Positions 1 to 13,772 of a stretch of DNA of 64,000 nucleotides are shown here, one piece after another (the first letter of the stretch is position 1; every line of letters begins with the position of its first letter). Below the pieces are notes generated by a model. It saw only the letters and a program-made list of their open reading frames with translations, did not search any database and had not been told where the DNA came from. The stretch lies in NCBI GenBank assembly GCA_021531255.1, contig JAFBIO010000004.1; one strand, written 5' to 3'. This DNA is from Allofournierella massiliensis (lineage in GTDB: Bacteria; Bacillota; Clostridia; Oscillospirales; Ruminococcaceae). The translations under genes were made by a program, and so were the position numbers.

Positions 1-582
1 GGTCAGATCCAAAAGCAGGATGCGGCCATCAGCGCGGCCCAGGCCGAGAAGGAGGCCCAGCAGGTCCAGGTGGAGGCGGCCCAGGCCGCGTTTGAGGAAG
101 CAGACGCCCAGTATGAGGCATATGTGCGCCAGCAGATCGCCCAGGGCGCTCAGGATAATACCCTTTACTGCGGGCTGGATTTCGGCTGCCCGCTGGATAG
201 CTACGCCCGCATCAGCTGCCGCTTCGGCGAGCCGGACGGCTGGAGCGGGAAACCCCATGGCGGCACCGATTTTGCGGCCAATGCGGGCAGCACCATCCGG
301 GCTGCGGCCGAAGGAGTAGTGCAGGCGGCCGGCGGCGGCGAAACCTACAGCTATGGCTACTATGTGATCCTGTACCATGGCAAGGATGACGCGGGCCGCA
401 CCATTGCCACCCTGTATGCCCATATGAACGAAGCGCCTCCGGTGAGCGTGGGCCAGGCAGTGGCCAAAGGGGAGGCCATCGGCCGGGTGGGCAATACCGG
501 CAATTCCAAGGGGTATCATCTGCACCTGGAATTGCGGATAGACGGCAATAAGACCGACCCGATGGTGTATATTCCCGGGTAA
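1..582 (+). CDS. M23 family peptidase (5' partial; N-terminal coiled-coil, C-terminal LytM/M23 domain)
   Basis: The frame is open from the window edge. The C-terminal motif GYYVILYHG...YAHMNE...GNTGNSKGYHLHLE is typical of M23 peptidases. Confidence 0.8.
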   Translation, partial: GQIQKQDAAISAAQAEKEAQQVQVEAAQAAFEEADAQYEAYVRQQIAQGAQDNTLYCGLDFGCPLDSYARISCRFGEPDGWSGKPHGGTDFAANAGSTIRAAAEGVVQAAGGGETYSYGYYVILYHGKDDAGRTIATLYAHMNEAPPVSVGQAVAKGEAIGRVGNTGNSKGYHLHLELRIDGNKTDPMVYIPG

Positions 583-754
583 AAAGGGGAAAACTGCAGG
601 ATAACCCCGGCCTGATCACCGGCCGGGGCCCTGCGGCCCCAGAAAAAAGCGGAAAACCCAAAGAAAATCCAAAGAAAATGCAAAAAATGCTTGACAGAAC
701 GGGGACAATCCCATATAATAATCTACGCACCTTATTTTGTTTGGTGCGGAATAT

Positions 755-831
755 GGCGGTATAGCTCAGTTGGCTAGAGCATTCGGTTCATACCCGAAGT
801 GTCACCGGTTCAAATCCAGTTACCGCTACCA
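755..831 (+). tRNA. tRNA-Met (anticodon CAT; could be lysidine-modified Ile2)
   Basis: Hand-folded cloverleaf with acceptor ggcggta/taccgct, anticodon stem ttcgg/ccgaa and loop ttCATac. It has a TTCAAAT T-loop, discriminator A and encoded CCA. Confidence 0.8.
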
Positions 832-924
832 TGGATACAGAGTTTCGCTAAGATACTTGGGGGTCGCCCGCAATAGTGGGTGAAAGAAGCTTGCTGTTTT
901 AGCGAAATTCTGTATTTTTTAAAA

Positions 925-999
925 GGCCCGTTGGTCAAGCGGTTAAGACACGGCCCTTTCACGGCTGTAACATGGGTTCGATTCCCGTACGGGTCACCA
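925..999 (+). tRNA. tRNA-Glu (anticodon TTC)
   Basis: Cloverleaf with acceptor ggcccgt/acgggtc, anticodon stem cggcc/ggctg, loop ctTTCac, T-loop TTCGATT and encoded CCA. Confidence 0.75.
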
Positions 1000-1004
1000 A
1001 ACAG

Positions 1005-1045
1005 AAAAGCGCTCGCCGGAATACGGCGGGCGCTTTTCTGCTTTC
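1005..1045 (+). terminator. Rho-independent terminator after the tRNA pair
   Basis: GC hairpin gcgctcgccgg...cggcgggcgc followed by a TTTTCTGCTTT run. Confidence 0.7.
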
Positions 1046-1306
1046 TATTGACTTAACCGGCTTAGAGCCGGCCTTCCCCGTCAGGCGGGAAAGGCGATTT
1101 CTATAATATATAGTAATAGTAGAATAAGCGAGGTCGGTTTTGCCGGCCTCTTTTTGTTTTGGAGAAAAGGAAAATTAAACAAGAAGGGAAAAGAAAAAAG
1201 AAGAATAAGAATTTTAATTTTACCCGCTTCTTTTAACCGGCCTTTTACCGGCGGATGATATAGTGTATCTGTAAGCTGAAGAAAGAAGGGGGGAGAGCGC
1301 GGTAAA

Positions 1307-1825
1307 ATGGATGGGTTTTATGCATCGGCGCCGAATCTGTGCAATGTCTGCATCGACAAGGCCGAAAAAGGCGAGTATGCGGGCCGACTATATCATTATT
1401 ACCAGCTCGAGCCCGAATCCTTCAAAAGCCAATACGAAATGATCCGAAGGATCGAATTGCTCTGTGACAGAGTAAATTATCCCCAGGCTTCGGAACAGAT
1501 CCGAAGTTTTGCCCCCACAGACACCTGTTTGCGGAATTCAAAAGAGCCGAAGGTAGAGCGATGCATGAGTAAAGAAAAATTGATAGAGCCGAAGGGCGAA
1601 AAAGTGACCTTTGTGGTTCATGTCATGTATCGCCAAAACGCCACCTGGCAGGGCAGCGTGACCTGGGCCGAAAAAAAGCAAACGGCCAATTTTCGCAGTG
1701 CGCTGGAGCTCATCAAACTGATGGACAGCGCTGTGGAGGCCACCGCCATGGCGGATGGCACCCAGGAAAAGGACGACCCGCCGCCCGAAGCCTCAGCCCC
1801 CGCGAGGCAGGCTAAAAAGAAATAA
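1307..1825 (+). CDS. Hypothetical protein (172 aa; no recognisable domain; lower GC than the genome)
   Basis: ORF with the RBS-like purine tract gaaagaaggggggagag upstream. GC is about 48% against about 63% genome-wide. It lies immediately upstream of the adhesin gene. Confidence 0.5.
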   Translation: MDGFYASAPNLCNVCIDKAEKGEYAGRLYHYYQLEPESFKSQYEMIRRIELLCDRVNYPQASEQIRSFAPTDTCLRNSKEPKVERCMSKEKLIEPKGEKVTFVVHVMYRQNATWQGSVTWAEKKQTANFRSALELIKLMDSAVEATAMADGTQEKDDPPPEASAPARQAKKK

Positions 1826-1882
1826 AAACAACGAACGTTTTCGTACAGCATAGAAGATTTCCTTGTTAGGGAGGCAACAGTT

Positions 1883-4800
1883 ATGAAACACAATTTGTTC
1901 AGCCGATTCCTCAGCATTGCGCTGGTTCTGGTCATGGTAGCCAGCGTTATGCCTGCCAGCATCCTGGCGGACGACGAGCTGACGGCGGATTCTTCGTCCG
2001 TGGTCAGTGAGATCGTGGAATCCGTTCTGCCCGAGGAGACTCCGGCAGCGCAGGAGCCCGCCGAGCAGGAGCCCGCCCCCGTTGCGGAGCAGACCCCTGC
2101 CCCCACGCCTGCGGCAGATGAGACTGCCCCTCTGACGGAGGAGGGCGACCAGGCTGCTGCCCCGACTCCTGAGGTGACTCCTGAGGCAACGCCGGAAGCC
2201 ACTCCTGCAGCTGGGGAAGAGGACCCGGAAAACGATGAGCAGGGCTCTGCCCCTGAACTGATCGAGCAGACGATTCAGGCGGTTGTTTATGAGGACGCTG
2301 ATTGCCTGATGCTGGCCGACTCGGGTGAGCCGGTGGATGTGATCACCCTCACTGGCAATATGCCGGAAGGCGCCGAGGCTAAGGCATACCCCGTTCAGGT
2401 GGAAATCGAGGGCGAGGTTGTTCTGGCAGCTTATGACATTACCATCTATGACGCACAGGGCAATGTGTATCAGCCGCAGGATGGCGCCATCCAGGTGAAA
2501 ATTGAGACTCCCCAGATCGCTCAGGCTCTGCAGCAGGAAAGCGAACTGAGCGTTTACCACATGGAGGACGAAACGGCTGAGCCGGAAAAGGTAGAGGAAG
2601 TAGCTGCTGTGGAAACGGCAGTGGAGTTTGCTGCGGAAAGTTTTTCCATCTACGTGGTTACGGATCCTACCCAGCACTTTACCCACACTTACATTTTTAT
2701 GGTAAATGGCGAAGAGGCCAGCCGTCAGATCCTGTCTGAGGGTGAGACTCTGCTGGAGCCGGAAACCCCGCGGTTGGACGGCTATGTTTTCAAGGGCTGG
2801 CTGCTGCCGGATGGCAGTACCTTTGCCGGTTTTAATCAGGTAGAGGGTGCGCTGGCGGAAAACAAAACCACCACGCTGACTGCCGACCTGACCCAGGGCT
2901 ACTACGTCTTTTATAAAGACGGACTGAATGGCCGAGTGATCCACACTCAGATCTATGCCCCGAACAGCAAGGTGGATTGGAGCGATGTTCCCTATACCGC
3001 TCCGGGCGAGGATGAGGCGCTGATTGGTTGGTCGCAGAACCACGAGGCAACGCAGCCGGAGGAGAATGTAACCGTAACCAACAGCGACATTATCCTCTAC
3101 CCGGTGGTAGCGAAGGCACACTGGATCACCTATTATTCTCAGGGTGGTTCGGTAGTGGAGCCCACATATGTGCTGGCCGGCCAGGCTGCGGTAGAGCCGG
3201 CTGAGCCCACGCGCCCGGGTTACACCTTTGCAGGGTGGTACACGGATGCAGAGGGCGGTACAAAGTATAACTTCGATTCTGTGGTGACGGAAGATATCAC
3301 CCTCTACGCCCAATGGACGCCCGGGCGGGTGAGCTACACCGTCGTCCACTGGTGGGAGAATGCCAACGACGAGGAATATTCTTACCATGATTCCGAGACG
3401 CTGACCGGGACGACCGGAGAACTGACCAAAGCCCAGGCCAAAAACTATGAGGTCTGGGATGAGAATATCAGACGGGAGCAGATTTCTGACTACCCATTTG
3501 TAGCAAAGGAGATTACTCAACAGACCATTGCCGGCGACGGTTCTACCATCGTCAACGTGTATTATGACCGGAAGGAGTACACCCTGACCTTTGTCGGTGA
3601 GAGCCGAGTGCTTACTTGCGGCAAGGAAGAGCATACGCATACATGGGACGATAGAAAATGGGTTCCTAGCATCATTTTGGTCTTCGGGCATTACGAATGC
3701 ACCGGCGGATGCTATGGAGAAGGTTGGCACAGAGAGAGTGAAACCAGTTGTCATATGGAGGAGCACCAGCATTCTGACTGGTGCTATAGCGATGAAGAGA
3801 CTATTCTCCACACCATCACCGCCAAATATGGTCAGAAGATTACTGATTGGCCCACCCATGGAGATGGCAATAACAACTGGGCTATGGGACCGAATGAAAG
3901 AAAGTATCTGGCCAATCTGTTGGTGATGCCCATGGGCGGCGGAACCTTGTATACATATGATGAGTCGGGGGGGCGGCATACAGCTTCTTATTATGTCGAG
4001 GCATTGAACCCGTTTGATACGGGTATTGACGGCAGCCAGGCAATCCGCGTAGGCGGAAAGTACTATGTTCTTCATCACAAGGATACCGTTGTCCTGAGTG
4101 GTCCTACAGTGGGTGAAGAGGACCGTTATGAGATCGAGGGCTTTACCTGCAATGCCGACATTGGTACAAAGGTTGGCAACAGCTATGATGGCGCTAAGTT
4201 CTACTATGACCGCAACAGCTACAACATTGTCTATTACAACGGTGGCGATATAGATCATAAGCAGGCTTATCGGTATGAGGCGGATATCTCTGGCGCAGGC
4301 AATTACACACCTACCCGGCCCGCCGGCATCCCTGACGACTATACCTTTGCAGGATGGTATAAAGATCCCCAAGGCACGGAGAAGTATGACTTTAATGGCA
4401 AGACTATGCCGGCCAATGACCTGATTCTTTATGCCAAGTGGGCTCCCGTCGTATACACTGTTTCCTTTGACCCGGCTGGCGGCCAAGCTCCGGAAGGTCA
4501 CGAAGATGCCTATAACCCTCAGGGAAATATCCTCCCTGGCTATACGGCTACAAAACCGGTTGACCCGGTGCGTGAAGGCTACGCCTTTGCTGGTTGGTAC
4601 ACGAAGGACGGTCAGCCCTTCAGCTTCACCACCCCCATTGGTAAAAACTATGAACTGGTAGCCCGTTGGGTTGGCAATGAAGCACATACCGTGACCTATG
4701 ATCCCGGCTACCGTAATGGCGTAGCTTTTGAGGATCCCAACAAGTACGCGGCTAACGCCAAGGCAAAAGTGCTGGAAGTGCCGGAGGATTGGACTGCCCA

Positions 4801-5569
4801 GGAAGGCAAGGAGTATTTCGTTTGCTGGACCACCAACAAAGATGGCACTGGCGATTCCTACTATCCCGGCGAGACCTTCCAGATGCCCAATGAAAACATT
4901 ACCCTCTACGCTCAGTGGAGCGCCGAGCGCAAAACGGTTCTGATCTATGATCACAACTACGAGGGCTCGGAGGACAAGATCATCAATAATATTGTGCCCA
5001 ACAGTGAGTATAAGATCGACTACGCGCCGAAGCGGGATGGCTACGATTTCCTGGGTTGGAGCAAGAGCCCGAAACCGGCAGAGGATGAGACGCTGCTGAA
5101 GGTGGGAGATACCATTCAGGTCGATACCCTGGAAGAGGAAACCAACATCCTGTACGCGCAGTGGCAGGCGGCTAACGGCAATTTGACTGTGACCAAAACG
5201 CTGGATAAGCTGAACCTGATGAAGGGTAATAGCGCTTCCTTTGCCTTCGAGATCAAGAACGATACCACCGGCGTGACCTATTACCATGTGTTCACTTTCA
5301 ATGATGGCGGCAGTCAGTCCTTCACCTTTAATGATCTGCCGGCAGGCAGCTACACCGTTAAGGAGCTGGATGCTGGAGGTTATGTGGCAGATGGAAATAA
5401 GAAGCAGGTAAGCGTGCCGGCAGGCGGAGAAGAAAGTATCGGGTTTACCAATACCGCCAGCGGCAACACCCCCGGCGATAACGATTATGCCAACAACCAG
5501 TTCACTTGTACCAACGGCGAGTGGGTCTGGAACCGCAATGATGACGATGCGGTTGACCCCCAGAACTGA
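1883..5569 (+). CDS. Giant secreted surface protein/adhesin with multiple Listeria-Bacteroides (Flg_new) repeats
   Basis: RBS AGGGAGG. Sec signal peptide MKHNLFSRFLSIALVLVMVASVMPASILA. Acidic, Pro/Ala/Thr-rich linker. At least five repeats of G(Y/D)xFxGW...LYAxW, the Flg_new signature. Cys/His-rich insert and beta-sandwich-like tail. No LPXTG motif or C-terminal TM. Confidence 0.9.
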   Translation: MKHNLFSRFLSIALVLVMVASVMPASILADDELTADSSSVVSEIVESVLPEETPAAQEPAEQEPAPVAEQTPAPTPAADETAPLTEEGDQAAAPTPEVTPEATPEATPAAGEEDPENDEQGSAPELIEQTIQAVVYEDADCLMLADSGEPVDVITLTGNMPEGAEAKAYPVQVEIEGEVVLAAYDITIYDAQGNVYQPQDGAIQVKIETPQIAQALQQESELSVYHMEDETAEPEKVEEVAAVETAVEFAAESFSIYVVTDPTQHFTHTYIFMVNGEEASRQILSEGETLLEPETPRLDGYVFKGWLLPDGSTFAGFNQVEGALAENKTTTLTADLTQGYYVFYKDGLNGRVIHTQIYAPNSKVDWSDVPYTAPGEDEALIGWSQNHEATQPEENVTVTNSDIILYPVVAKAHWITYYSQGGSVVEPTYVLAGQAAVEPAEPTRPGYTFAGWYTDAEGGTKYNFDSVVTEDITLYAQWTPGRVSYTVVHWWENANDEEYSYHDSETLTGTTGELTKAQAKNYEVWDENIRREQISDYPFVAKEITQQTIAGDGSTIVNVYYDRKEYTLTFVGESRVLTCGKEEHTHTWDDRKWVPSIILVFGHYECTGGCYGEGWHRESETSCHMEEHQHSDWCYSDEETILHTITAKYGQKITDWPTHGDGNNNWAMGPNERKYLANLLVMPMGGGTLYTYDESGGRHTASYYVEALNPFDTGIDGSQAIRVGGKYYVLHHKDTVVLSGPTVGEEDRYEIEGFTCNADIGTKVGNSYDGAKFYYDRNSYNIVYYNGGDIDHKQAYRYEADISGAGNYTPTRPAGIPDDYTFAGWYKDPQGTEKYDFNGKTMPANDLILYAKWAPVVYTVSFDPAGGQAPEGHEDAYNPQGNILPGYTATKPVDPVREGYAFAGWYTKDGQPFSFTTPIGKNYELVARWVGNEAHTVTYDPGYRNGVAFEDPNKYAANAKAKVLEVPEDWTAQEGKEYFVCWTTNKDGTGDSYYPGETFQMPNENITLYAQWSAERKTVLIYDHNYEGSEDKIINNIVPNSEYKIDYAPKRDGYDFLGWSKSPKPAEDETLLKVGDTIQVDTLEEETNILYAQWQAANGNLTVTKTLDKLNLMKGNSASFAFEIKNDTTGVTYYHVFTFNDGGSQSFTFNDLPAGSYTVKELDAGGYVADGNKKQVSVPAGGEESIGFTNTASGNTPGDNDYANNQFTCTNGEWVWNRNDDDAVDPQN

Positions 5570-5595
5570 GAAACCAGTAGAAAGGAGAGAGAACA

Positions 5596-6099
5596 ATGAA
5601 AAAAAATATCCTTAAAATTGCGCTTTCTGCTCTGCTGGTAATGGTGGTGCTGGTGGGCAGTACCCTGGCTTTCCTGGCTACCCAGACAGATGTGCTTGCC
5701 AATACCTTTGCAATCGTAAATATTGACACGGAAGTGGTGGAAGACCCGGAGACCGGCAGCGCGGCCAGCAAGGCGCCACAAATCACGAACACGACCAACA
5801 GCAATGTACCTGTCTATGTGCGGGCTTACGCGGTGGTAAGCACAGATAAGGATTCCCCCGTATCGGTGAGCAGCGAGAATGTTTCGTTTACCTATTCGTC
5901 TGAATGGACGAAATCTGGGGACTATTACTACTATACGAAGCCGCTGCAGCCGGGGGAGACCACCCCAGCACTCTTTAATGGCGTGAAGGTTACCGGCCTG
6001 GATGAAACGGCCCGCTTCTCTGTCTACGTCTACCACGAGAGCGTGCAGGCCAAGACTACTCTGGACACTGTTGAAGAGATCGCTGCGCTCTTTGATTAA
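5596..6099 (+). CDS. TasA/camelysin-like protein 1 with SipW-cognate signal peptide
   Basis: RBS AAAGGAGAG. The N-terminus MKKNILKIALSALLVMVVLVGSTLAFLATQTDVLANTF matches the SipW-cognate class (compare TasA GGGTFAFFSD). It carries the shared motif YYYYTKPLQPGETTPALFNGVKV. Confidence 0.85.
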   Translation: MKKNILKIALSALLVMVVLVGSTLAFLATQTDVLANTFAIVNIDTEVVEDPETGSAASKAPQITNTTNSNVPVYVRAYAVVSTDKDSPVSVSSENVSFTYSSEWTKSGDYYYYTKPLQPGETTPALFNGVKVTGLDETARFSVYVYHESVQAKTTLDTVEEIAALFD

Positions 6100-6138
6100 G
6101 CACTGCGCAATAACAGGGCAGGAGGTACTCTTCCCCGC

Positions 6139-6687
6139 ATGATCGTAAAAAGAATCTGCAATATTTTATCAACCATAATGGTACTGTTGCTGGCGGCAGT
6201 AGCGGCAGTGATCCTGGTGCCCATGCTCATGGGCTACAAGGAAATGGCTGTGCTGTCCGGCAGTATGGAGCCCACCATCCCGGTGGGGAGCATCGTCTAT
6301 GTGAAACCGCTGGACGATGCCTCCCTGCTGGAGCCGGGTGACATCTGTACTTATGTTTTGGCTGATGGCAAAACAATGGTTACCCACCGGGTGATCAGCG
6401 TGGACCCGGAAAGCCAGACCCTGGTGACCCAGGGCGACGCCAATAGTTCACCGGACGGTGCAATCAGCTTTGATCAGGTGTATGGCGAAACCCAGTTCCA
6501 TCTGCCTTATCTGGGCTACATCACCATCAACGCAAAAACTCCCAAGGGCATTATGGCTATCTGTGGGGTGTTGGTGGTAGTGGTTCTGGTCAACTTTATC
6601 CCCGCCATCATCGATGCGGATGAAGAGGACAAGAAAAAAGCTCTAAAGCAGGCAGATGAACCTTCCCCAAAAGAAGAAAATATGTAA
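6139..6687 (+). CDS. sipW: Signal peptidase I, archaeal/ER-type (SipW family) 1
   Basis: N-terminal TM, the LSGSMEPT catalytic serine box, and VTHRVIS...TQGDAN motifs homologous to B. subtilis SipW. It has a C-terminal TM plus an acidic/lysine tail. Confidence 0.85.
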   Translation: MIVKRICNILSTIMVLLLAAVAAVILVPMLMGYKEMAVLSGSMEPTIPVGSIVYVKPLDDASLLEPGDICTYVLADGKTMVTHRVISVDPESQTLVTQGDANSSPDGAISFDQVYGETQFHLPYLGYITINAKTPKGIMAICGVLVVVVLVNFIPAIIDADEEDKKKALKQADEPSPKEENM

Positions 6688-6843
6688 AACGGCTGGAAAA
6701 TTAAAAATTTTCTATAATTTTAACCGCCTTTTATCCCCGCTCTGCTAAACTGAAAATAGAAAATGTGGGGCGGGGAACTCACATCCGTTTCACAAATTTG
6801 GGCGCAGGGTGCGCTCGAAAAAACTAAAAGAGGAGATTATATC

Positions 6844-7515
6844 ATGAAAAAGAAGAACGTACTTATGACGGCTCTGTCTCTGACTCTGGTGGGCGTTATT
6901 GCTGCGGGCAGCACCCTGGCCTATCTCACCTCTCAGAGCGATACCCTGACCAACACCTTCACCGTGGGCGAAGGGTACGGCACGGAGCAGGATCCTGGCT
7001 TCTACCTGGATGAGACTGCCGCAAAGGTAGAAGTGGTTGAAGGGAAGACTGTCACCACCAACCCCACTTCGAAGAGTCAGTTCGGTCGTACCGATGAAGG
7101 CAATACCTATGCTGCCATGAGCATTGGCGATACCATCTATAAGGATCCTACCTTCCATCTGGATGAAGGCCCCGAGAGCTATATCTTTGCAATAGTTGAA
7201 GGCGTAGACGCTATGGAAGCTGATGGCGTTGGCTTCGACTTCGATGGCTGGAGCACTAACTGGGTAAAGGTTGACGGTTCCAAAGGCCGTGATGGCTATT
7301 ACCGTTACACCAGCACGGTAACCGCCGGCACCGAGATTGCCCCCCTGTTCACCAACGTTTCTCTGCCCGCAGCCCTGAAGGCACTGCCTGATAACAGAGA
7401 TCTGACCAACATCACCATCAAGGGTGTTGCCATTCAGGCTGCGAACCTGGCTACCTGGCAAGACGCTTGGGCTGCCCTGGCAGAGGATGCTCCTGGTTTC
7501 CGTCCTGCTGCCTGA
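6844..7515 (+). CDS. TasA/camelysin-like protein 2 with SipW-cognate signal peptide
   Basis: RBS AAAGAGGAG. N-terminus MKKKNVLMTALSLTLVGVIAAGSTLAYLTSQSDTLTNTF. Shared motif YYRYTSTVTAGTEIAPLFTNVSLP. Confidence 0.85.
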   Translation: MKKKNVLMTALSLTLVGVIAAGSTLAYLTSQSDTLTNTFTVGEGYGTEQDPGFYLDETAAKVEVVEGKTVTTNPTSKSQFGRTDEGNTYAAMSIGDTIYKDPTFHLDEGPESYIFAIVEGVDAMEADGVGFDFDGWSTNWVKVDGSKGRDGYYRYTSTVTAGTEIAPLFTNVSLPAALKALPDNRDLTNITIKGVAIQAANLATWQDAWAALAEDAPGFRPAA

Positions 7516-7615
7516 TCAGACAGGAAAACAGTTGTTTTTCTTGTAACCTGATTTAGGCGTGGATCCCGGCAAGGAATATCCCTGCTTTACAAATCCCGAT
7601 TTGTGAGGTAATAAA

Positions 7616-8269
7616 ATGAAGAAAAAAAATATTTTAACGGCTGTGCTTAGCCTTTGCTTGGTCGCAGTCATTACGGTGGGCGCCACTTTGGCCTATTTCA
7701 CCGATAAGAGCGAAGCGGTACATAACACCTTCACCACCGGCAACATTAAAATTGCCGTGGTAGATGAGACCAATCCCACTGAGGGCCAGGTAGGCGGCGT
7801 GAAGGATCCTGAGACCGGCGATATCGCTTATGGTACCGTGACTCCCATCATGCCCGGCGACGTGATCAGCAAGCAGGTAAGCGTATCTGTGAATTCCGAC
7901 AGCCAGCCCGCCTGGGTGGCTCTGAAACTCACTACGAACGTTTCTCTGTCCCCCGACTCCAAGCTGACTGTGAATGAGGCCAATGCCGCTGTTAAGGCTC
8001 TGATCGATCAGGAAGTGGCCAAGCAGAGAGCTTGGGTTGAAGATGAAAATAACAAAGGCGTCTATTACTATCGCGACATCGTCCAGCCCGGCGATACTGC
8101 TGCTTCCATCTTCAACACTCTCACCATTCCTGGCGAAGCCTGGGGCAACGATTATGCTGGTATGACCTTCACCATTGATGTGAAAGCTGCTGCTGTGCAG
8201 GCCGCAAACATCGATACCATTGAGGATGCCAAGCCCGAGCTGAGCAAGCTGTTCATCGAGATCAGCTAA
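7616..8269 (+). CDS. TasA/camelysin-like protein 3 with SipW-cognate signal peptide
   Basis: N-terminus MKKKNILTAVLSLCLVAVITVGATLAYFTDKSEAVHNTF is a near-textbook SipW-cognate signal. Shared motif YYYRDIVQPGDTAASIFNTLTIP. Confidence 0.85.
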   Translation: MKKKNILTAVLSLCLVAVITVGATLAYFTDKSEAVHNTFTTGNIKIAVVDETNPTEGQVGGVKDPETGDIAYGTVTPIMPGDVISKQVSVSVNSDSQPAWVALKLTTNVSLSPDSKLTVNEANAAVKALIDQEVAKQRAWVEDENNKGVYYYRDIVQPGDTAASIFNTLTIPGEAWGNDYAGMTFTIDVKAAAVQAANIDTIEDAKPELSKLFIEIS

Positions 8270-8369
8270 CTACTAAATGGCTCCAGAAGCAACCAAAACC
8301 ATATTCAGGCATTTGTGGTAAGGCTTCCTTGTGATTTGTAGAAAATGATCAGGAAAGGAGGGCGGCCGG

Positions 8370-8867
8370 TTGAAAGCAAGGCTGCTAAGCGCTGCGGCTG
8401 CGGCGCTGATTCTGGCCCTCATATTGGCCGCCCTCCCTCTTACCATTCCCAAGCTTTGGGGCTATCAGATCTACAATGTCCTCACCAGCAGTATGACTCC
8501 CGCCTTGCCTCCCGGCAGCGCGATTTATGTCAAAGCTTGTGACGCCCAGGACTTAGAGCCCGGCGACATTATTACCTTTACTCTAAGCAGCAGCACCACT
8601 CTGGTGGAGACCCACCGCGTGGTCGAAAACGACTGGCAGGCCCGGCAGCTCGTTACAAAAGGCGATGCAAATGCCGACGTGGATATCGACCCCGTGGCAT
8701 ATGACCGGGTGGTGGGCAAAGTGGTCTTCAGCATACCAGTTTTAGGCGCCGCTTCCCAGATGATGCGTTCAAGAGGCGGCATCGCGGTTTGCATAGCAAT
8801 ATTTGCCCTGGCATTTATTCTATGGACACTTGCAGACAAGATGAAAAAAAGGGAGAGTTTCAAGTGA
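8370..8867 (+). CDS. sipW: Signal peptidase I, archaeal/ER-type (SipW family) 2
   Basis: TTG start with RBS AAAGGAGG. N-terminal TM, the LTSSMTP serine box, and VETHRVV...TKGDAN motifs. It has a C-terminal TM. Confidence 0.8.
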   Translation: MKARLLSAAAAALILALILAALPLTIPKLWGYQIYNVLTSSMTPALPPGSAIYVKACDAQDLEPGDIITFTLSSSTTLVETHRVVENDWQARQLVTKGDANADVDIDPVAYDRVVGKVVFSIPVLGAASQMMRSRGGIAVCIAIFALAFILWTLADKMKKRESFK

Positions 8868-9553
8868 AAAAGAGATTTTTGCTGATGGGCGCGGCAGCCG
8901 TTCTGGTTATGGCTACAGTGGTAGGCGGCTCCCTGGCCGCAGACCAGGTGAGCGGCGATCAGGCGGTGCAGGCACCTCTTGCCGCAACGAACCTGAGTAT
9001 TGCGCTGGACGGTGCGGCGGAATATCCCATCGAAAGCGCCTGGATGCCCGGTAATACCATTGAACTGAATGGCGAGACCGGCATCTATTCTGTGGAAAAC
9101 ACCGGTACGGGGGATAGTTACATCCGCCTTACCTTATACACATATTGGAGCGACGAAGACGGCGTCAATACCGATTTCGTAGCCACTAATGATCAGGGCG
9201 AGGTTTATCAGCATGTAGCCCAGGTGGAAGTCCCCGCTGAGATGCTGGGCGATGGCTGGGTCAAGGCCGAAGGTGGTCTGCTGGGCCAGTCGGTAGACGG
9301 CAAGCAGGTGTTCTACTACACCAAGCCCTTGGCCACCGGCGAAAGCACCGGCGCTTTGCTCAAGGGGGTAAAACTTCCTGCTTCGCTGAGCAATCAGTAT
9401 GCGGGGCAGCAGATCACCCTGCGGGCAGAAGCGGACGGCGTACAGTTCATCGGCGCGGATTACAACGAGGTGAACGCCGACGGTATCCTTTCTGCCTGGG
9501 GTGTGAAAGCTACCCTGGGTGCGGACGGCAGCATTGCCAAGATCGAAAATTAA
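8864..9553 (+). CDS. TasA/camelysin-like protein 4 (more divergent signal peptide)
   Basis: GTG start overlapping the sipW2 stop. N-terminus VKKRFLLMGAAAVLVMATVVGGSLAADQ. Shared motif FYYTKPLATGESTGALLKGVKLP, paralogous to the other three. Confidence 0.7.
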   Translation: MKKRFLLMGAAAVLVMATVVGGSLAADQVSGDQAVQAPLAATNLSIALDGAAEYPIESAWMPGNTIELNGETGIYSVENTGTGDSYIRLTLYTYWSDEDGVNTDFVATNDQGEVYQHVAQVEVPAEMLGDGWVKAEGGLLGQSVDGKQVFYYTKPLATGESTGALLKGVKLPASLSNQYAGQQITLRAEADGVQFIGADYNEVNADGILSAWGVKATLGADGSIAKIEN

Positions 9554-9581
9554 GCGACAGCGGAAAGACAGGTAAAAGACT

Positions 9582-10313
9582 ATGATGAAAAGAATCAGTG
9601 CCATCGTGCTTGCCCTGAGCGTTTCCGTCGTGCTGGCCCTTGGCTGCTTTGCCGCTGACACCACCGGCACAGCCACCTATGATGGAAGCAAACTCAATGT
9701 GGAAGGCGATATGTCCGGTTTTTCCAGCATGGTGCCCGGGCTGCCCCAGAGCGGCTCTGTCCAGCTGAAAAATGCTTCGGATAAAACCGCCAATTTCTAC
9801 ATGAATACCGATGTGGTCAGTACCCTGATCACCAATTTGGAAGGCGCCACCCAGACCGCCTACACCGTCAGCCTCAGCTGCGGCGATACCGTGTTGTACG
9901 GTTATGACCCGGCTACCGGCGCCACCGGCAGCCTGGTGGGCGGCATGGATACCCAGGGCCTGGAAGAATTGAACGGGGACCTGGAAGGCTACCTGCTGGT
10001 GGCTACCCTGAAACCCGGCGAGACTGCGGATGTGAACTTCTCCATCACCCCGGATGCCCGCAGCACCACCGATTACTACCAGTTCAGTGAAGGTCTGGTG
10101 GAATTCCGCTTCCAGGTTCGGGATGTGGAACCCATTGTGAAGAAAAACACCATCACCAAAGAGGGCGAGGATGTGGTCGTTACCCAGACCCGCTATGTGG
10201 TGGAGGCCGCCAAAACCGGCGATACCAACCTGATCTTTGTGGCTGCCGGCCTGCTGGCCCTGGCTCTGGTGATCCTGGTTGTAACCAAGAAAAAGAAGAA
10301 GGAGGATCAGTGA
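9582..10313 (+). CDS. Cell-wall-anchored surface protein, predicted sortase-B substrate (noncanonical sorting signal AAKTG)
   Basis: Sec signal peptide ...ALGCFA/AD. The C-terminus has AAKTGDTN followed by the hydrophobic segment LIFVAAGLLALALVILVV and a KKKKKEDQ tail. It contains an LKPGETADVNF motif reminiscent of the TasA-like paralogs. Confidence 0.75.
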   Translation: MMKRISAIVLALSVSVVLALGCFAADTTGTATYDGSKLNVEGDMSGFSSMVPGLPQSGSVQLKNASDKTANFYMNTDVVSTLITNLEGATQTAYTVSLSCGDTVLYGYDPATGATGSLVGGMDTQGLEELNGDLEGYLLVATLKPGETADVNFSITPDARSTTDYYQFSEGLVEFRFQVRDVEPIVKKNTITKEGEDVVVTQTRYVVEAAKTGDTNLIFVAAGLLALALVILVVTKKKKKEDQ

Positions 10314-10314
10314 G

Positions 10315-11280
10315 ATGCGTAAGAGCTTTGTAAAACGCCTTGCCTGCGCGGCGCTGGCCCTCTCCATGGCCATGACCATGGCCATCCCCGCCTTTGCCGA
10401 CGAGCAGGGCCGGGTGGTTACCTTCCGCCCCGGCATGGAAGGCTCTGTCTTCAGCGAAGAGTATATTGCGTACATCGAGAACACCGGCTATACATACGAA
10501 GTCAGCCAGGCGACCGGCAGCATTTCGGTGCTGGTGCCCATCGGCAGCCCTGCCCCCAACGCGCCGGATTATACCGATATCATCCCGGGGGATTCCCGCT
10601 ATCAGGTCATTGACCCGGCCGAGGGGTATCAGCAGAATGGCCAGCTGAGCAGCGAGCATGTGACCCAGTACGCCATGAAGCGCCAGGGTGAGGATTACGC
10701 CTACACCGTGGAATACCGGGATCGGGATACCGGCGAGGAAGTAGCTCCCGCTCAGCGCGGCACTTCCAGCGCTGTGACCCTGACCTTCTATGCCCCGGCC
10801 ATTGCCAACTACCGGGCAGAGGCCGAATCGGCTACCCTGACCATTACGGCCGAGGGCCCCAACCTTCTGACCTTCTGGTATGTGGCAGTGCCCATCACCG
10901 AGACCAAGACCGTTACCGCTGATGGGAATACGATCTACCGCTACAATGATGTCACCGTCTACAGCACCGCAGGCGTTGCAGGCGGCGGTGCTGGCGGCGG
11001 CGCAGGAGCCGGCGCAGGAGCCGGCGCTGGTGGCGGAGAAGGCGGCGGTGAGGTCATCAACCCCGATGAGACTCCTCTCACCGGCGGCGAGGCCACCGAG
11101 CCTGAGACCTCCGGTCCCACTGAGGAAATCAACCCGGATGAAACTCCCCAGACCAACGCTCCCGAAGAGGAGAGCAGCGGCCTGAGCCCCATGGTGGGTG
11201 TGGGCATCGGCCTGGTTTTTCTGATCCTGGCGGTGGCCTTCTTCCTCAAGCGCAAAAAGGATAGCGCCGCAGAAGAATAA
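10315..11280 (+). CDS. Cell-wall-anchored surface protein, predicted sortase-B substrate (tandem NPDETPLTGG / NPDETPQTN motifs)
   Basis: Sec signal peptide and a Gly/Ala-rich low-complexity linker. The C-terminus has INPDETPLTGG...INPDETPQTNAPEEE followed by TM GVGIGLVFLILAVAFF and an LKRKK tail. Confidence 0.75.
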   Translation: MRKSFVKRLACAALALSMAMTMAIPAFADEQGRVVTFRPGMEGSVFSEEYIAYIENTGYTYEVSQATGSISVLVPIGSPAPNAPDYTDIIPGDSRYQVIDPAEGYQQNGQLSSEHVTQYAMKRQGEDYAYTVEYRDRDTGEEVAPAQRGTSSAVTLTFYAPAIANYRAEAESATLTITAEGPNLLTFWYVAVPITETKTVTADGNTIYRYNDVTVYSTAGVAGGGAGGGAGAGAGAGAGGGEGGGEVINPDETPLTGGEATEPETSGPTEEINPDETPQTNAPEEESSGLSPMVGVGIGLVFLILAVAFFLKRKKDSAAEE

Positions 11281-11306
11281 GTGGTATCATAACAAGTGAA
11301 TCACGC

Positions 11307-11339
11307 AAAGGAGCTGCCCTTGCGGCAGCTCCTTTTTTA
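11307..11339 (+). terminator. Rho-independent terminator
   Basis: aaaggagctgccc-ttgc-gggcagctcc hairpin followed by TTTTTT. Confidence 0.75.
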
Positions 11340-11367
11340 TTCTCACCAAGCATAAAGGGAAAGAAAA

Positions 11368-12150
11368 ATGGAAGAACGCAAGAAAAAGCGCTTTTCGGCG
11401 TTGAGTCTGATCCGAATCATCGCCCTGGTAGTGGCCCTGGTATCGGCCGGTGCCATCCTCTGGCAGCTGTATATCTACCGGCAGGGCGAAGAAACCTATG
11501 AAGAATTGCGCCAGCAATACACCACAACGGCGGAAGAATCGGCCCAGAGCCAGGCGAATGAGCAGGCCGAGGAACCTTTCCAGCTGCTGGATGTGGATTT
11601 TGAGGCCCTGCAGGCCCAGAACCCGGATGTGGTGGGCTGGATCGACTTTGACGCCATCGAGCTGAGCTACCCGGTGGTCTGGTCCGGGGACAACGAAAAG
11701 TATCTGCGCACCATGTGGAACGGAACCCCCAACACGGCGGGCAGCGTATTTTTGGAGGGTGCCAATACCGGCTGGCAAGACCTGCATGTGATTCTGTACG
11801 GCCACAACATGCGCAACCGCAGTATGTTCGGCAACCTGCGGGAATACCGGGATGTGGAGTTCTATAAAAAGAACGGCGGATGGTTCACCCTCTATACCCC
11901 CGATGATGGGATCTGGCGCTACCAGATCTTTGGGGCAAAGCAGGTGAGCAGCGACGATCCTTTGTACACCGTGGGCTTTTCGGTGGGGGATACCTATACG
12001 GAATTTCTCAAGCAGATGTGCCAGGGGCGCTTTTATGAGACAGGCGTGACCCTCTATTCCGAGGACCATGTGATGACCCTGAGCACCTGTGTGGGCGACG
12101 ATGCCCAGCGCTTGGTGATCATGGCCAGAAGAGCCGAGCAGGTGGGATGA
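11368..12150 (+). CDS. srtB: Class B sortase
   Basis: N-terminal TM anchor. LYGHNM...His and TLSTC catalytic Cys motifs. Arg near the C-terminus. The fold-family signature is typical of SrtB. Confidence 0.9.
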   Translation: MEERKKKRFSALSLIRIIALVVALVSAGAILWQLYIYRQGEETYEELRQQYTTTAEESAQSQANEQAEEPFQLLDVDFEALQAQNPDVVGWIDFDAIELSYPVVWSGDNEKYLRTMWNGTPNTAGSVFLEGANTGWQDLHVILYGHNMRNRSMFGNLREYRDVEFYKKNGGWFTLYTPDDGIWRYQIFGAKQVSSDDPLYTVGFSVGDTYTEFLKQMCQGRFYETGVTLYSEDHVMTLSTCVGDDAQRLVIMARRAEQVG

Positions 12151-12172
12151 ATACCGAATCCCACAAAAAATA

Positions 12173-12213
12173 AGAGCGGCCCCTTTTGCAAGAAGGCAAA
12201 GGGGGCCGCTTTA
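12173..12213. terminator. Bidirectional terminator between srtB and the EamA gene
   Basis: gagcggccccctttt...aaagggggccgcttt hairpin. Confidence 0.7.
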
Positions 12214-12231
12214 TGTATGCAGAAAAGATTT

Positions 12232-13116
12232 TTAAAGGGAAGAAGGAGCCTTTTTCCGGTTCAGCAAGGCCACTGCGGCAAAAATCAGGGCAACCCCGGC
12301 ACATTTGGCGGGGGTAAGGGGTTCCCCCCAGAGAAAGATGCCGATGAGGGTGGCACTCAGGGGTTCCGCCGTGGCCAGGATGGCCGCCCGCCCCGCTTCC
12401 ATCCGGGCCAGACCCCAGGTATAAAGCAGATAGGGCAGGATGCTGCAAAGAACCGTATTGCCCAGCACCTCCCCAAAGGCGGCGGGCTGCAGGCAAAGCC
12501 GGAAAAGTTGAAGGGGAGAGGTCAGCACCAGGCAGCCGGCTGCGGCAAAGAAGAAGGTGTAAGCGGTGACCGTAAGGGTCTGATAGCCTCGGTTCAGGGC
12601 AGCCTGGCCGAAGATGGAGTAAAGGGCATAGCCCAGGCCGCTGCAAACCCCAATCAAAACGCCAAGAGGATTCAAGGGATCGCCGCCGGTATAGCCAGCC
12701 ACCAGAACGCAGCCGATAAAGGTACACAGAAGGGCCAGCAGTTTGGCAGGGCCGATCTTTTCCCGGAAAAAGAGGGCGGAAAAAAGCATGACCCAGATGG
12801 GGCTGGTGTAGAGCAGTACCACCGCCACGCCGGCACCGGTGGTGCGGATGGTGGTGAAATAGCACCAGTTGAAAAATACCATGCTCAGCAGGCCGGTGCC
12901 GGCAAAAAGCCAGAGATCTTTCAGCCGCACCCGGAGCAGGCTTTTGTCCTTCCATAAAAGGAGGAAAAAGCAGAGCAGGGCGCTGAGCAGGCAGCGGCCC
13001 GCCACGATTTGGATGCTGTCAAAGCCAAGGGCCGTGAGCCCCCGCACAAAGATACTGATCAGGCTCCACAATACCGCGGCGGAGAGCACCGCCAGGGCGG
13101 GCGCGTGCTGCTTCAT
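12232..13116 (-). CDS. EamA/DMT family transporter
   Basis: Ten predicted TMs and two EamA-like halves. Its ATG overlaps the stop of the upstream HAD gene (ATGA-type coupling). Confidence 0.85.
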   Translation of the reverse strand: MKQHAPALAVLSAAVLWSLISIFVRGLTALGFDSIQIVAGRCLLSALLCFFLLLWKDKSLLRVRLKDLWLFAGTGLLSMVFFNWCYFTTIRTTGAGVAVVLLYTSPIWVMLFSALFFREKIGPAKLLALLCTFIGCVLVAGYTGGDPLNPLGVLIGVCSGLGYALYSIFGQAALNRGYQTLTVTAYTFFFAAAGCLVLTSPLQLFRLCLQPAAFGEVLGNTVLCSILPYLLYTWGLARMEAGRAAILATAEPLSATLIGIFLWGEPLTPAKCAGVALIFAAVALLNRKKAPSSL

Positions 13117-13772
13117 ACCGATGCCCCCCGAATAAGGGCAGCCAGTTCTTCCGGGCTGGCGGCCAGATGATCAGCGCCGGCCTGAATCAGTTCTTCCCGG
13201 CTGCGGAAACCCCAAAGAACGCCGCAGGTGGTAAGTCCGCCGTTTCGGCCGGTCTGGATATCCACATTACTGTCCCCCACAAAAAGGGTGTGGGCCGGGT
13301 CGGCGCTCAGGTCCTTCATCAGGGCGTGCAGCCCGGCGGGGTCGGGTTTGGGGGGCACCCCATCCACCCGGCCTTTTACCTGATGGACCAGGCCGGGCAG
13401 GTAGTGTTCCACCACCGCCTTAGCCGGGCCGTCATCCTTGTTGCTGAAGACGCCTACCTGGATGCCTTCTTCCTTCAAAGAAGCCAAAAGCTGGGAAATG
13501 CCCGGGTAGGGGGCGGTGGTATCCTCCTTGTGGATGGCATAGGCCGCTAAATATTCCCGCAAGGTACCGGCGAGAACTTCGGGGCTGCGCTGATCCGGGG
13601 GAGAAAACCGTTCCACCAGTTTGGGCATGCCGTTGCCCACAAAGGTCTTGTAGGTGTCCACTGAAAAAGTGGGCCAGCCGTGGGCCTGGCAGACCAGATT
13701 GGCACAATAGGCCAGATCCTGGATGGTGTTGAGAAGAGTGCCGTCCAGATCAAAGATCACTGTGGTAAACAT
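13113..13772 (-). CDS. HAD family hydrolase (phosphoglycolate phosphatase-like)
   Basis: DLDGTL motif I, S/T motif II, and K...GDSNVD motif IV. Confidence 0.85.
   Translation of the reverse strand: MFTTVIFDLDGTLLNTIQDLAYCANLVCQAHGWPTFSVDTYKTFVGNGMPKLVERFSPPDQRSPEVLAGTLREYLAAYAIHKEDTTAPYPGISQLLASLKEEGIQVGVFSNKDDGPAKAVVEHYLPGLVHQVKGRVDGVPPKPDPAGLHALMKDLSADPAHTLFVGDSNVDIQTGRNGGLTTCGVLWGFRSREELIQAGADHLAASPEELAALIRGASV

Follow-up and report, generated by a model that had tools for sequence, protein, structure and literature searches.

The Bsa system of Clostridium perfringens (sipW-bsaA-bsaB-bsaC with srtB) is the closest studied relative of the locus described here. Its fibre protein BsaA polymerises by inserting residues 28–38 (V33, N35, F37) into the next monomer, and an N35–K74 isopeptide bond, formed with E56 catalysis, has been shown by mutagenesis (Kivimaki et al., PMC11580942). 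The srtB gene lies beside sipW-bsaA, and an LPXTG-bearing bsaB-like gene is found in most strains (PMC11580942). The same preprint (Kivimaki et al., 2024/25) also noted BsaA/TasA operons that combine more than one paralogue with LPXTG, SpaA and sortase, and the presence of several paralogues per operon suggests heteropolymers (PMC11580942). In this study, a 64,000-nucleotide stretch of DNA from Allofournierella massiliensis (NCBI GenBank assembly GCA_021531255.1, contig JAFBIO010000004.1), hereafter the window, was analysed, with a focus on a block of 11 co-directional genes on the + strand (g0 to g10, window 1307–12150) that combines TasA/BsaA-like proteins, SipW-type signal peptidases, a giant adhesin and a sortase. 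On balance, we favour the reading that this locus builds a surface fibre (pilus) from several TasA/BsaA-family subunits, with the giant adhesin at the tip and a sortase-anchored base, by a mechanism that we infer from comparison with the systems below.

The locus shares several features with C. perfringens Bsa, including BsaA-family, SipW-dependent subunits encoded as several paralogues per operon, a V-x-N-x-F donor strand accompanied by an isopeptide triad, and an adjoining class B sortase gene (PMC11580942, PMC7395162). A BsaB-like paralogue with a sorting signal, present in most C. perfringens strains, is a further likeness. The differences are also considerable. The locus here has two SipW genes, and its four paralogues are joined by a fifth, divergent protein that carries an anchor. 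The place of the vWA protein BsaC is taken by a giant Flg_new adhesin whose tail is donor-like. A conserved g0 and a g9 are found here in addition. The sortase gene is co-directional and downstream in the window but divergent in C. perfringens, the sorting motif is xKTGD instead of LPXTG, and the proteins here score below the cutoff of the BsaA family model TIGR04090.

The TapA-SipW-TasA system of Bacillus subtilis and the SipW-TasA-CalY-CapP system of Bacillus cereus likewise use SipW-processed subunits with a TIGR04088-type signal peptide, and an accessory protein connects their fibre to the cell. TasA polymerises by donor-strand exchange (PMC9674648), and the Bacillus systems are described as sortase-independent (PMC13082335). 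In contrast to these systems, neither TapA nor CapP has a detected homologue among the proteins of the locus; the earlier expectation that TapA would be missing agrees with the NCBIfam matches, which contained no TapA model for any of the 11 proteins. TasA also differs in having no isopeptide triad, and only the N-terminal 50 residues of g5 match the TasA family model PF12389.

Sortase-dependent pili (SpaA type; the FCT pilus of Streptococcus pyogenes) resemble the proposed organelle in having a tip adhesin, a shaft and a wall-anchored base, in their isopeptide chemistry, in a CnaB/SpaA-like domain within the adhesin and in a signal-peptidase homologue encoded beside the sortase. However, the shaft subunits of the present locus carry neither sorting signals nor pilin motifs; polymerisation by strand exchange is predicted here, and the sortase would anchor the base only. 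Chaperone-usher pili and the type V pili of Bacteroidia are similar in that an ordered polymer (tip adhesin, adaptor, shaft, terminator or anchor) is joined by donor strands, and in type V pili assembly is triggered by proteolytic removal of an N-terminal segment. Those pili are made of unrelated families in outer-membrane bacteria, whereas no chaperone or usher is present here and sortase anchoring to peptidoglycan is proposed. In archaeal bundling pili (AbpA) and Sulfolobus threads, an archaeal-type signal peptidase processes the subunits, which are TasA-like or complemented by donor strands, and the threads also carry isopeptide bonds (PMC9715654). They are archaeal, however, and consist of a single kind of subunit, with no sortase and no tip adhesin.

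The original prediction, which was made from the sequence alone, had called the pairing of SipW-processed subunits with sortase anchoring and a giant adhesin an undescribed architecture. This claim has to be withdrawn, since such operons are already noted in the preprint cited above and srtB adjoins sipW-bsaA in C. perfringens (PMC11580942). The kind of operon is therefore on record, yet experimentally uncharacterised. The literature searched contained no mention of SipW-sortase fusions, of a donor-like adhesin tail, of a triad-less and donor-less anchored subunit, of a two-module organisation or of strain-level cassette variability. Judged from sequence comparison, the features that appear to be new here are the triad in three subunits, the donor-like adhesin tail, the triad-less anchor subunits, and the hypervariable tip and shaft genes beside a conserved base.

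The 11 genes are separated by short gaps, and a plausible ribosome-binding site precedes each of them (Table 1). Every component listed in the original prediction, which described a composite TasA-like, SipW and sortase-B block with a giant adhesin, was recovered on the + strand where it had been placed, but the conserved first gene g0 and the hairpin before the sortase gene had been overlooked. The same gene order recurs in many genomes, so the grouping of these genes lies far beyond chance. Identical Fournierella massiliensis proteins are named 'SipW-dependent-type signal peptide-containing protein' (g5), 'class B sortase' (g10) and 'hypothetical' (g0) at NCBI.

Table 1 Genes and other features of the putative fibre locus (positions within the window)
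Feature	Position	Strand	Description
g0	1307–1825	+	172-aa cytoplasmic protein, first gene of the cassette; no family match
g1	1883–5569	+	1228-aa secreted Flg_new adhesin with C-terminal SpaA/CnaB-like domain, without sorting signal; proposed tip
g1 C-terminal tail	5462–5569	+	GNTPGDNDYANNQFTCTNGEWVW...; resembles the donor strand at the mature N-terminus of pilins (D-x5-6-N-x-F)
g2	5596–6099	+	167-aa TasA/BsaA-like subunit; proposed adaptor adjoining the adhesin
g3	6139–6687	+	SipW-type (archaeal/ER-type) signal peptidase 1
g4	6844–7515	+	223-aa TasA/BsaA-like subunit with Asn-Glu-Lys triad
g5	7616–8269	+	217-aa TasA/BsaA-like subunit; proposed main shaft subunit
g6	8370–8867	+	SipW-type signal peptidase 2; type fused to sortase in Lachnospiraceae
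g7	8864–9553	+	229-aa TasA/BsaA-like subunit without Asn/Glu/Lys triad
g8	9582–10313	+	243-aa remote TasA-like protein; AAKTGD, membrane-spanning stretch, KKKKK; proposed wall-anchored base
g9	10315–11280	+	321-aa secreted protein; C-terminus with TPQTN, spacer, membrane-spanning stretch, KRKK
Terminator-like hairpin	11307–11335	+	lies between g9 and g10; 12-bp stem with a T run after it
g10	11368–12150	+	260-aa class-B-type sortase

Family membership of g2, g4, g5 and g7 was evaluated with curated models and with profile–profile comparison (hhalign). The model of the SipW-cognate signal peptide (TIGR04088, cutoff 19) was passed by g5 (36.1 bits) and narrowly missed by g4 (18.2 bits); g2 and g7 were not reported by it, and their signal regions align with that of g5 in hhalign. 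The camelysin/TasA/CalY model (PF12389, cutoff 22.5) was passed by g5 alone with 24.9 bits, and this match spans only residues 3–51, that is, the signal peptide and the donor strand. Scores against TIGR04090 were 36.4 bits for g5, 31.7 for g2, 28.4 for g7 and 14.8 for g4, all below the cutoff of 60 bits; the matches of g5 (E value 4.6e-9), g2 (1.2e-7) and g7 (1.2e-6) are significant and cover the core domain, and that of g4 has an E value of 0.018. The four proteins are mutually homologous with probabilities of 98.9–100%, as seen for g2 against g5 (100%), g4 against g5 (E value 2.3e-45) and the g7 family against the g5 family (99.7%). On these profile scores, the four subunits are homologous to, yet outside, the curated TIGR04090 subfamily. 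The call of four paralogous TasA-like proteins was thus upheld by their mutual homology, and at the level of curated thresholds it stood for g5 (TIGR04088 and PF12389) but not for g2, g4 and g7. The AlphaFold2 model of g5 is a beta sandwich with a pLDDT (predicted local distance difference test) score of 82.8. A Foldseek search of this model against the PDB gave no significant match, and the family profiles of g5, g8, g0 and g9 yielded nothing meaningful against PDB sequences.

The residues on which BsaA polymerisation depends have counterparts by alignment in three of the subunits. In g5, the donor-strand motif V35-H-N37-T-F39 matches V33/N35/F37 of BsaA, and the triad N37/D50/K86 is invariant in 59 homologues, with Asp in place of the Glu of BsaA; in the g5 family of 182 sequences, the Asn is retained in 179, the Glu or Asp in 178 and the Lys in 178. 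The g4 triad (N37/E57/K100, numbered from the start at 6844) is 100% conserved at each position across 53 sequences. In g2, N36 is present in 76/76 sequences and E49 in 74/76, and K59 is found in 54/76, with 25 further Lys in the neighbouring alignment column. From this alignment, g2, g4 and g5 appear to carry the Asn-Glu/Asp-Lys triad that BsaA uses for its isopeptide lock. The triad is absent from g7, where the alignment has no conserved Asn, Glu or Lys at those positions, and from g8, which like g7 has neither the Asn nor the Lys.

Both SipW-type peptidases passed the signal peptidase model TIGR02228 (cutoff 51.85), with 99.3 bits for g3 and 78.4 bits for g6, thereby confirming that two such enzymes are interleaved with the TasA-like genes as had been predicted. 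Both failed the equivalog model of the Bacillus SipW (NF046067, cutoff 190; 102.4 bits for g3 and 72.7 bits for g6), and they are thus SipW-type enzymes but not orthologues of the Bacillus enzyme. The motifs SGSMEP, THRV and GDAN are present in g3.

The second peptidase also occurs joined to a sortase. In nine Lachnospiraceae loci, a g6-type SipW and a class B sortase form one polypeptide of 425–477 amino acids (Pfam S26 and Sortase matches), with the SipW domain N-terminal and the sortase C-terminal, and all of these genes lie within TasA-like clusters (L018:10742–12046 and L019:10846–12207, as well as L020, L022, L025, L029, L048, L050 and L053). The N-termini of the fusion proteins match the g6 motif LTVPKLFGYQIY..LT.SM.P, and the L019 fusion scores above the cutoffs of both TIGR02228 (84.8 bits) and the class B sortase model TIGR03064 (180.2 bits). 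Gene fusion is a classical sign of shared function, so the fusions functionally link SipW with the sortase.

The proposed base of the fibre comprises g7 and g8. The g8 family aligns with the g7 family over 168 columns with a probability of 96.7% (E value 3.8e-10), a result that a second comparison reproduced, and the g7 family aligns with the g5 family as given above; g8 therefore contains a remote TasA-like domain. This homology rests on broader alignments and on the link via g7, and it agrees with the earlier remark that one of the anchor proteins, here g8, carries a TasA-like LKPGET motif. Relative to g7, g8 has an ordinary signal peptide and is shorter by about 11 residues at the site expected for the donor strand. 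It stands directly 3' of g7 in every locus in which g7 was found. Two anchor models are passed by g8, namely TIGR01167 (25.2 bits, cutoff 15.9) and PF00746 (22.4 bits, cutoff 20). Its orthologues retain [VA][KQ]TGD, the membrane-spanning stretch and the basic tail, and across 33 of them the T-G-D immediately before the membrane-spanning stretch is 93–96% conserved. This conserved sortase-type sorting signal makes g8 a credible covalent anchor, in line with the proposal that a sortase-anchored protein could take over the anchoring role.

Two proteins with non-LPXTG sorting signals had been expected, and the anchor models supported this for g8 but not for g9, which passed none of the anchor models and matched nothing in Pfam, NCBIfam or the PDB profiles. 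In the C-termini of g9 orthologues, [TV]P[QL][AT][GN] (TPQTN, VPQAG, TPQAG, VPLAN) is separated by a variable spacer from a membrane-spanning stretch, after which comes a basic tail. This motif recalls class B motifs such as NPQTN, and non-canonical sorting motifs are usual for class B sortases. A g9 gene follows g8 in 13/80 of the homologous loci introduced below. The assignment of g10 as a sortase is supported by PF04203 (49.9 bits, cutoff 26.6) and by TLSTC at residue 237, which corresponds to the TLxTC catalytic motif. Class B was by far its best-scoring sortase class, as had been predicted, but with 151.9 bits it fell 1.9 bits short of the TIGR03064 cutoff (153.75); no class C sortase model matched. 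Within the 64-kb window, g10 is the sole sortase, and g8 and g9 are the sole anchor-like proteins.

The earlier description of g1 as a 1228-amino-acid adhesin with Flg_new repeats was substantiated by matches to PF09479 (198.7 bits, six stretches) and TIGR02543 (114.8 bits, four stretches). Its C-terminal SpaA-like domain scored 22.4 bits against a cutoff of 23.1, and neither LPXTG nor a C-terminal sorting signal was found in g1. Large open reading frames (ORFs) occur in 70/80 homologous loci, and in all loci whose large ORF was recognisable as homologous to g1 the next gene 3' is of the g2 type. The tails of large ORFs across loci contain the last strand of a CnaB-type domain (VTFTN) followed by a D...N-x-F motif, with WLYDESAVRNVF and TDTDVVVNRF as examples and GDNDYANNQF in the window; they can be likened to the mature N-terminus of pilins, for instance YFTDKSEAVHNTF. 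When a hidden Markov model (HMM) of the donor segment was used, the best match fell within the last 60 residues in 23/67 large ORFs, compared with 3.6 expected by position, although the large ORFs are interrelated and the binomial P therefore overstates their independence. The g1 protein of the window had no match in this search, and its tail was compared by eye. We put forward as a hypothesis that the adhesin is joined to the fibre tip by donating its C-terminal tail to g2.

Comparative genomics was based on 80 loci fetched from GTDB species with g5 homologues. These relatives span Oscillospiraceae, Lachnospiraceae, Eubacteriaceae and Erysipelotrichaceae, and the ordered cassette is conserved across these families. 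A sister strain (L001) and more distant Oscillospiraceae (L003, L005) share this gene order around their g5 homologues. Two modules can be recognised: module A is [g0]-[large adhesin]-g2-SipW-g4-g5, and module B is SipW2-g7-g8-g9, to which a sortase is added in some loci. Of the 80 loci, 75 contain three or more TasA-like genes and 69 a SipW; 40 encode a small protein whose C-terminus has TGD, a membrane-spanning stretch and a basic tail, and 17 encode a class-B-type sortase. Three placements of the sortase were seen: in Oscillospiraceae it follows g8/g9, in L055 and L057 it follows a short [TS]P[HD]TGD anchor, and in L024 it follows a VPPTGD protein.

Comparison of the window with the sister strain L001 revealed a sharp division within the locus. 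Protein identity is 96% for g0, then 26% for g1, 40% for g2, 72% for g3, 26% for g4 and 64% for g5, and again high for g6 (97%), g7 (96%), g8 (94%), g9 (93%) and g10 (98%); the flanks are 94–98% identical at the DNA level. The variable stretch, which contains the adhesin body, g2, SipW1, g4 and g5, corresponds to window positions 2200–8300 and L001 positions 4100–10660 and has protein identities of 26–72%. Thus, g1–g5 form a replaceable cassette with the proposed tip and shaft genes, and g0 and g6–g10 are conserved. This pattern is expected if g1–g5 are exposed and g6–g10 lie near the cell. Such replacement at the strain level points to selective pressure on the tip and shaft that comes from hosts, from phages or from the immune system.

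A stepwise mechanism can be proposed from these observations. The subunits would leave the cell via Sec, and SipW would remove their special signal peptides. The freed N-terminal strand (V-x-N-x-F) would then enter the beta sandwich of a neighbouring subunit by donor-strand exchange, as in TasA and BsaA. In g2, g4 and g5, the inserted strand would be locked by an Asn-Lys isopeptide bond with Glu or Asp as the catalytic residue, as shown for BsaA. At the tip, g1 would be plugged into g2 via its donor-strand-mimicking C-terminal tail; g4 and g5 would make up the shaft, and g7 followed by g8, both without the triad, would form the base. With no donor strand of its own, g8 would end the chain. The sortase g10 would join g8 covalently to peptidoglycan through the xKTGD signal, and the second SipW (g6) may cooperate with the sortase on the base module. 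Assembly would proceed tip-first in the order g1, g2, g4/g5 repeated, g7 and g8, and the genes would be arranged like their subunits along the fibre, with those for the tip first and those for the base last. We regard this full ordered scheme as tentative and hold it with less confidence than the general reading of the locus as a fibre locus with a sortase-anchored base.

The proposal of a sortase-anchored fibre has to be weighed against a second reading, in which the locus is a matrix fibre operon whose sortase is a bystander or serves another substrate. Attachment of the fibres would then be non-covalent or would depend on g8 and g9 as membrane-anchored proteins, with the xKTGD and TPQTN tails as plain membrane anchors. 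We consider this unlikely, though it is the best placed of the alternatives. Several results weigh in its favour or against the model of a sortase-anchored fibre. Deletion of srtB in C. perfringens left BsaA polymers unchanged (Obana et al. 2020, PMC7395162), and BsaA oligomers of strain HN13 behaved as membrane-anchored and not as wall-anchored (PMC11580942). No experimental study of a sortase-anchored TasA-like fibre was found in the literature searched. The terminator-like hairpin between g9 and g10 suggests that the sortase is transcribed, in part at least, separately from the genes before it. Most homologous loci have no nearby sortase: none lies within 10 kb in 63/80 loci, L003 and L005 with their full g0–g9 set among them, although short contigs are frequent in this group. 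The fusion loci L025 and L050 have no TGD-type anchor protein within 10 kb. At the protein level, the g8 pentapeptide AAKTG lacks the Leu-Pro of LPXTG, g9 fails every anchor model and g10 narrowly misses the class B cutoff. The relationships assumed within the fibre are also affected: narrower alignments of g5 and g8 matched at the signal peptide only (probability 31%, hhalign), the subunits score under the TIGR04090 family cutoff, and in a permutation test adhesin tails showed no greater similarity to donor strands from the same locus than to ones from other loci (P 0.97).

The bystander reading is opposed by the nine SipW2-sortase fusions within such clusters, by the position of the sortase directly after an anchor gene or module in three separate arrangements, and by g8, which passes two anchor models and keeps T-G-D across its orthologues. 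The C. perfringens deletion also has to be read together with the strain used: most strains have an LPXTG-bearing bsaB-like gene beside srtB, and the knockout strain is without that gene. Because of the three arrangements, the nine fusions, the conserved TGD of g8 and the presence of the sole sortase and its sole candidate substrates in one window, the sortase is probably part of the fibre system.

A third reading holds that no fibre is built at all, and that the TasA-like proteins act as monomers, secreted or at the surface, in the manner of camelysin-like factors, and are encoded in a loose collection of surface-protein genes. The mostly missed thresholds of the curated families and the unspecific fold searches would fit such proteins. 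This reading is weakened by the near-invariant donor strand and Asn-Glu/Asp-Lys triad, which match the experimentally tested BsaA mechanism; moreover, dedicated SipW genes are present and the cassette has kept its order across clostridial families. We judge it to be very improbable. The least probable reading by our estimate is a classical sortase-polymerised Gram-positive pilus with the SipW paralogues as chaperone-like helpers, like SipA, which in the S. pyogenes FCT pilus cooperates with a class-B-type sortase: as in that pilus, a signal-peptidase homologue is found here alongside such a sortase and non-canonical sorting motifs, and g1 has a SpaA-like domain, but this candidate was rejected on the ground that the shaft subunits lack sorting signals, as g1, g2, g4, g5 and g7 all do at their C-termini, and both SipWs keep catalytic-type motifs unlike SipA, the BsaA/TasA family polymerises without sortase and g10 matches no class C model.

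Most knowledge of TasA-type fibres concerns the loosely attached biofilm matrix of Bacillus, and most knowledge of Gram-positive pili concerns sortase-polymerised chains. This locus and its relatives in gut Clostridia suggest a hybrid, in which a strand-exchange fibre bears an adhesin at its tip and is anchored covalently to the wall. If the favoured reading is true, the purpose of the sortase beside bsa-type operons would be explained, a candidate adhesion organelle would be at hand for abundant and poorly studied gut commensals, and self-locking, sortase-anchorable protein fibres might find use in protein engineering. The system could then constitute a third route of pilus building in Gram-positive bacteria, characterised by tip-first assembly of mixed subunits through donor-strand exchange, spontaneous isopeptide locks, a C-terminal donor mimic on the adhesin, a donor-less base subunit processed and attached by a SipW and class B sortase pair, gene order equal to subunit order, and a swappable tip and shaft on a conserved base. 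Such a generalisation is possible but doubtful, and we advance it no more firmly than the ordered scheme.

The first gene of the cassette, g0, may encode a regulator. Its orthologues lead the cassette in 21/80 loci and form a family of 140–190 amino acids, with C15, D17, G26, R66, G97, R109 and W114-Q115-G116 (YRQNATWQG) as invariant residues. No match to g0 was found in Pfam, NCBIfam or the PDB profiles. Antitermination of the LoaP/NusG type was considered for g0 and dropped, as there was no NusG or KOW match. A gene for a BTAD or Trans_reg_C (SARP-like) regulator lies just upstream of the cassette in L003 (1–573) and L005 (3483–4733). In L018 (1549–2766) and L050 (2027–3229), an ORF of about 400 amino acids occupies the same position, at which the window carries tRNA genes and an M23 peptidase gene.

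The locus is flanked by a tRNA-Met/tRNA-Glu pair with a terminator (755–1040) on one side and by a convergent EamA transporter gene on the other. An Rfam scan of positions 1–13500 matched only these two tRNAs, with no riboswitch or leader. The promoter scan gave no convincing promoter for g0; the perfect sigma-70-type match, TTGACA-17-TATAAT at 691–719, precedes tRNA-Met (755–831) and tRNA-Glu (925–999) instead. The strong terminator hairpin at 1002–1040 lies directly upstream of the fibre locus. Further upstream, an M23-family peptidase gene (Peptidase_M23, 91.9 bits) occupies window positions 70–582 with a listed ORF of 170 amino acids; the corresponding gene call in the sister strain L001 has 397 amino acids.

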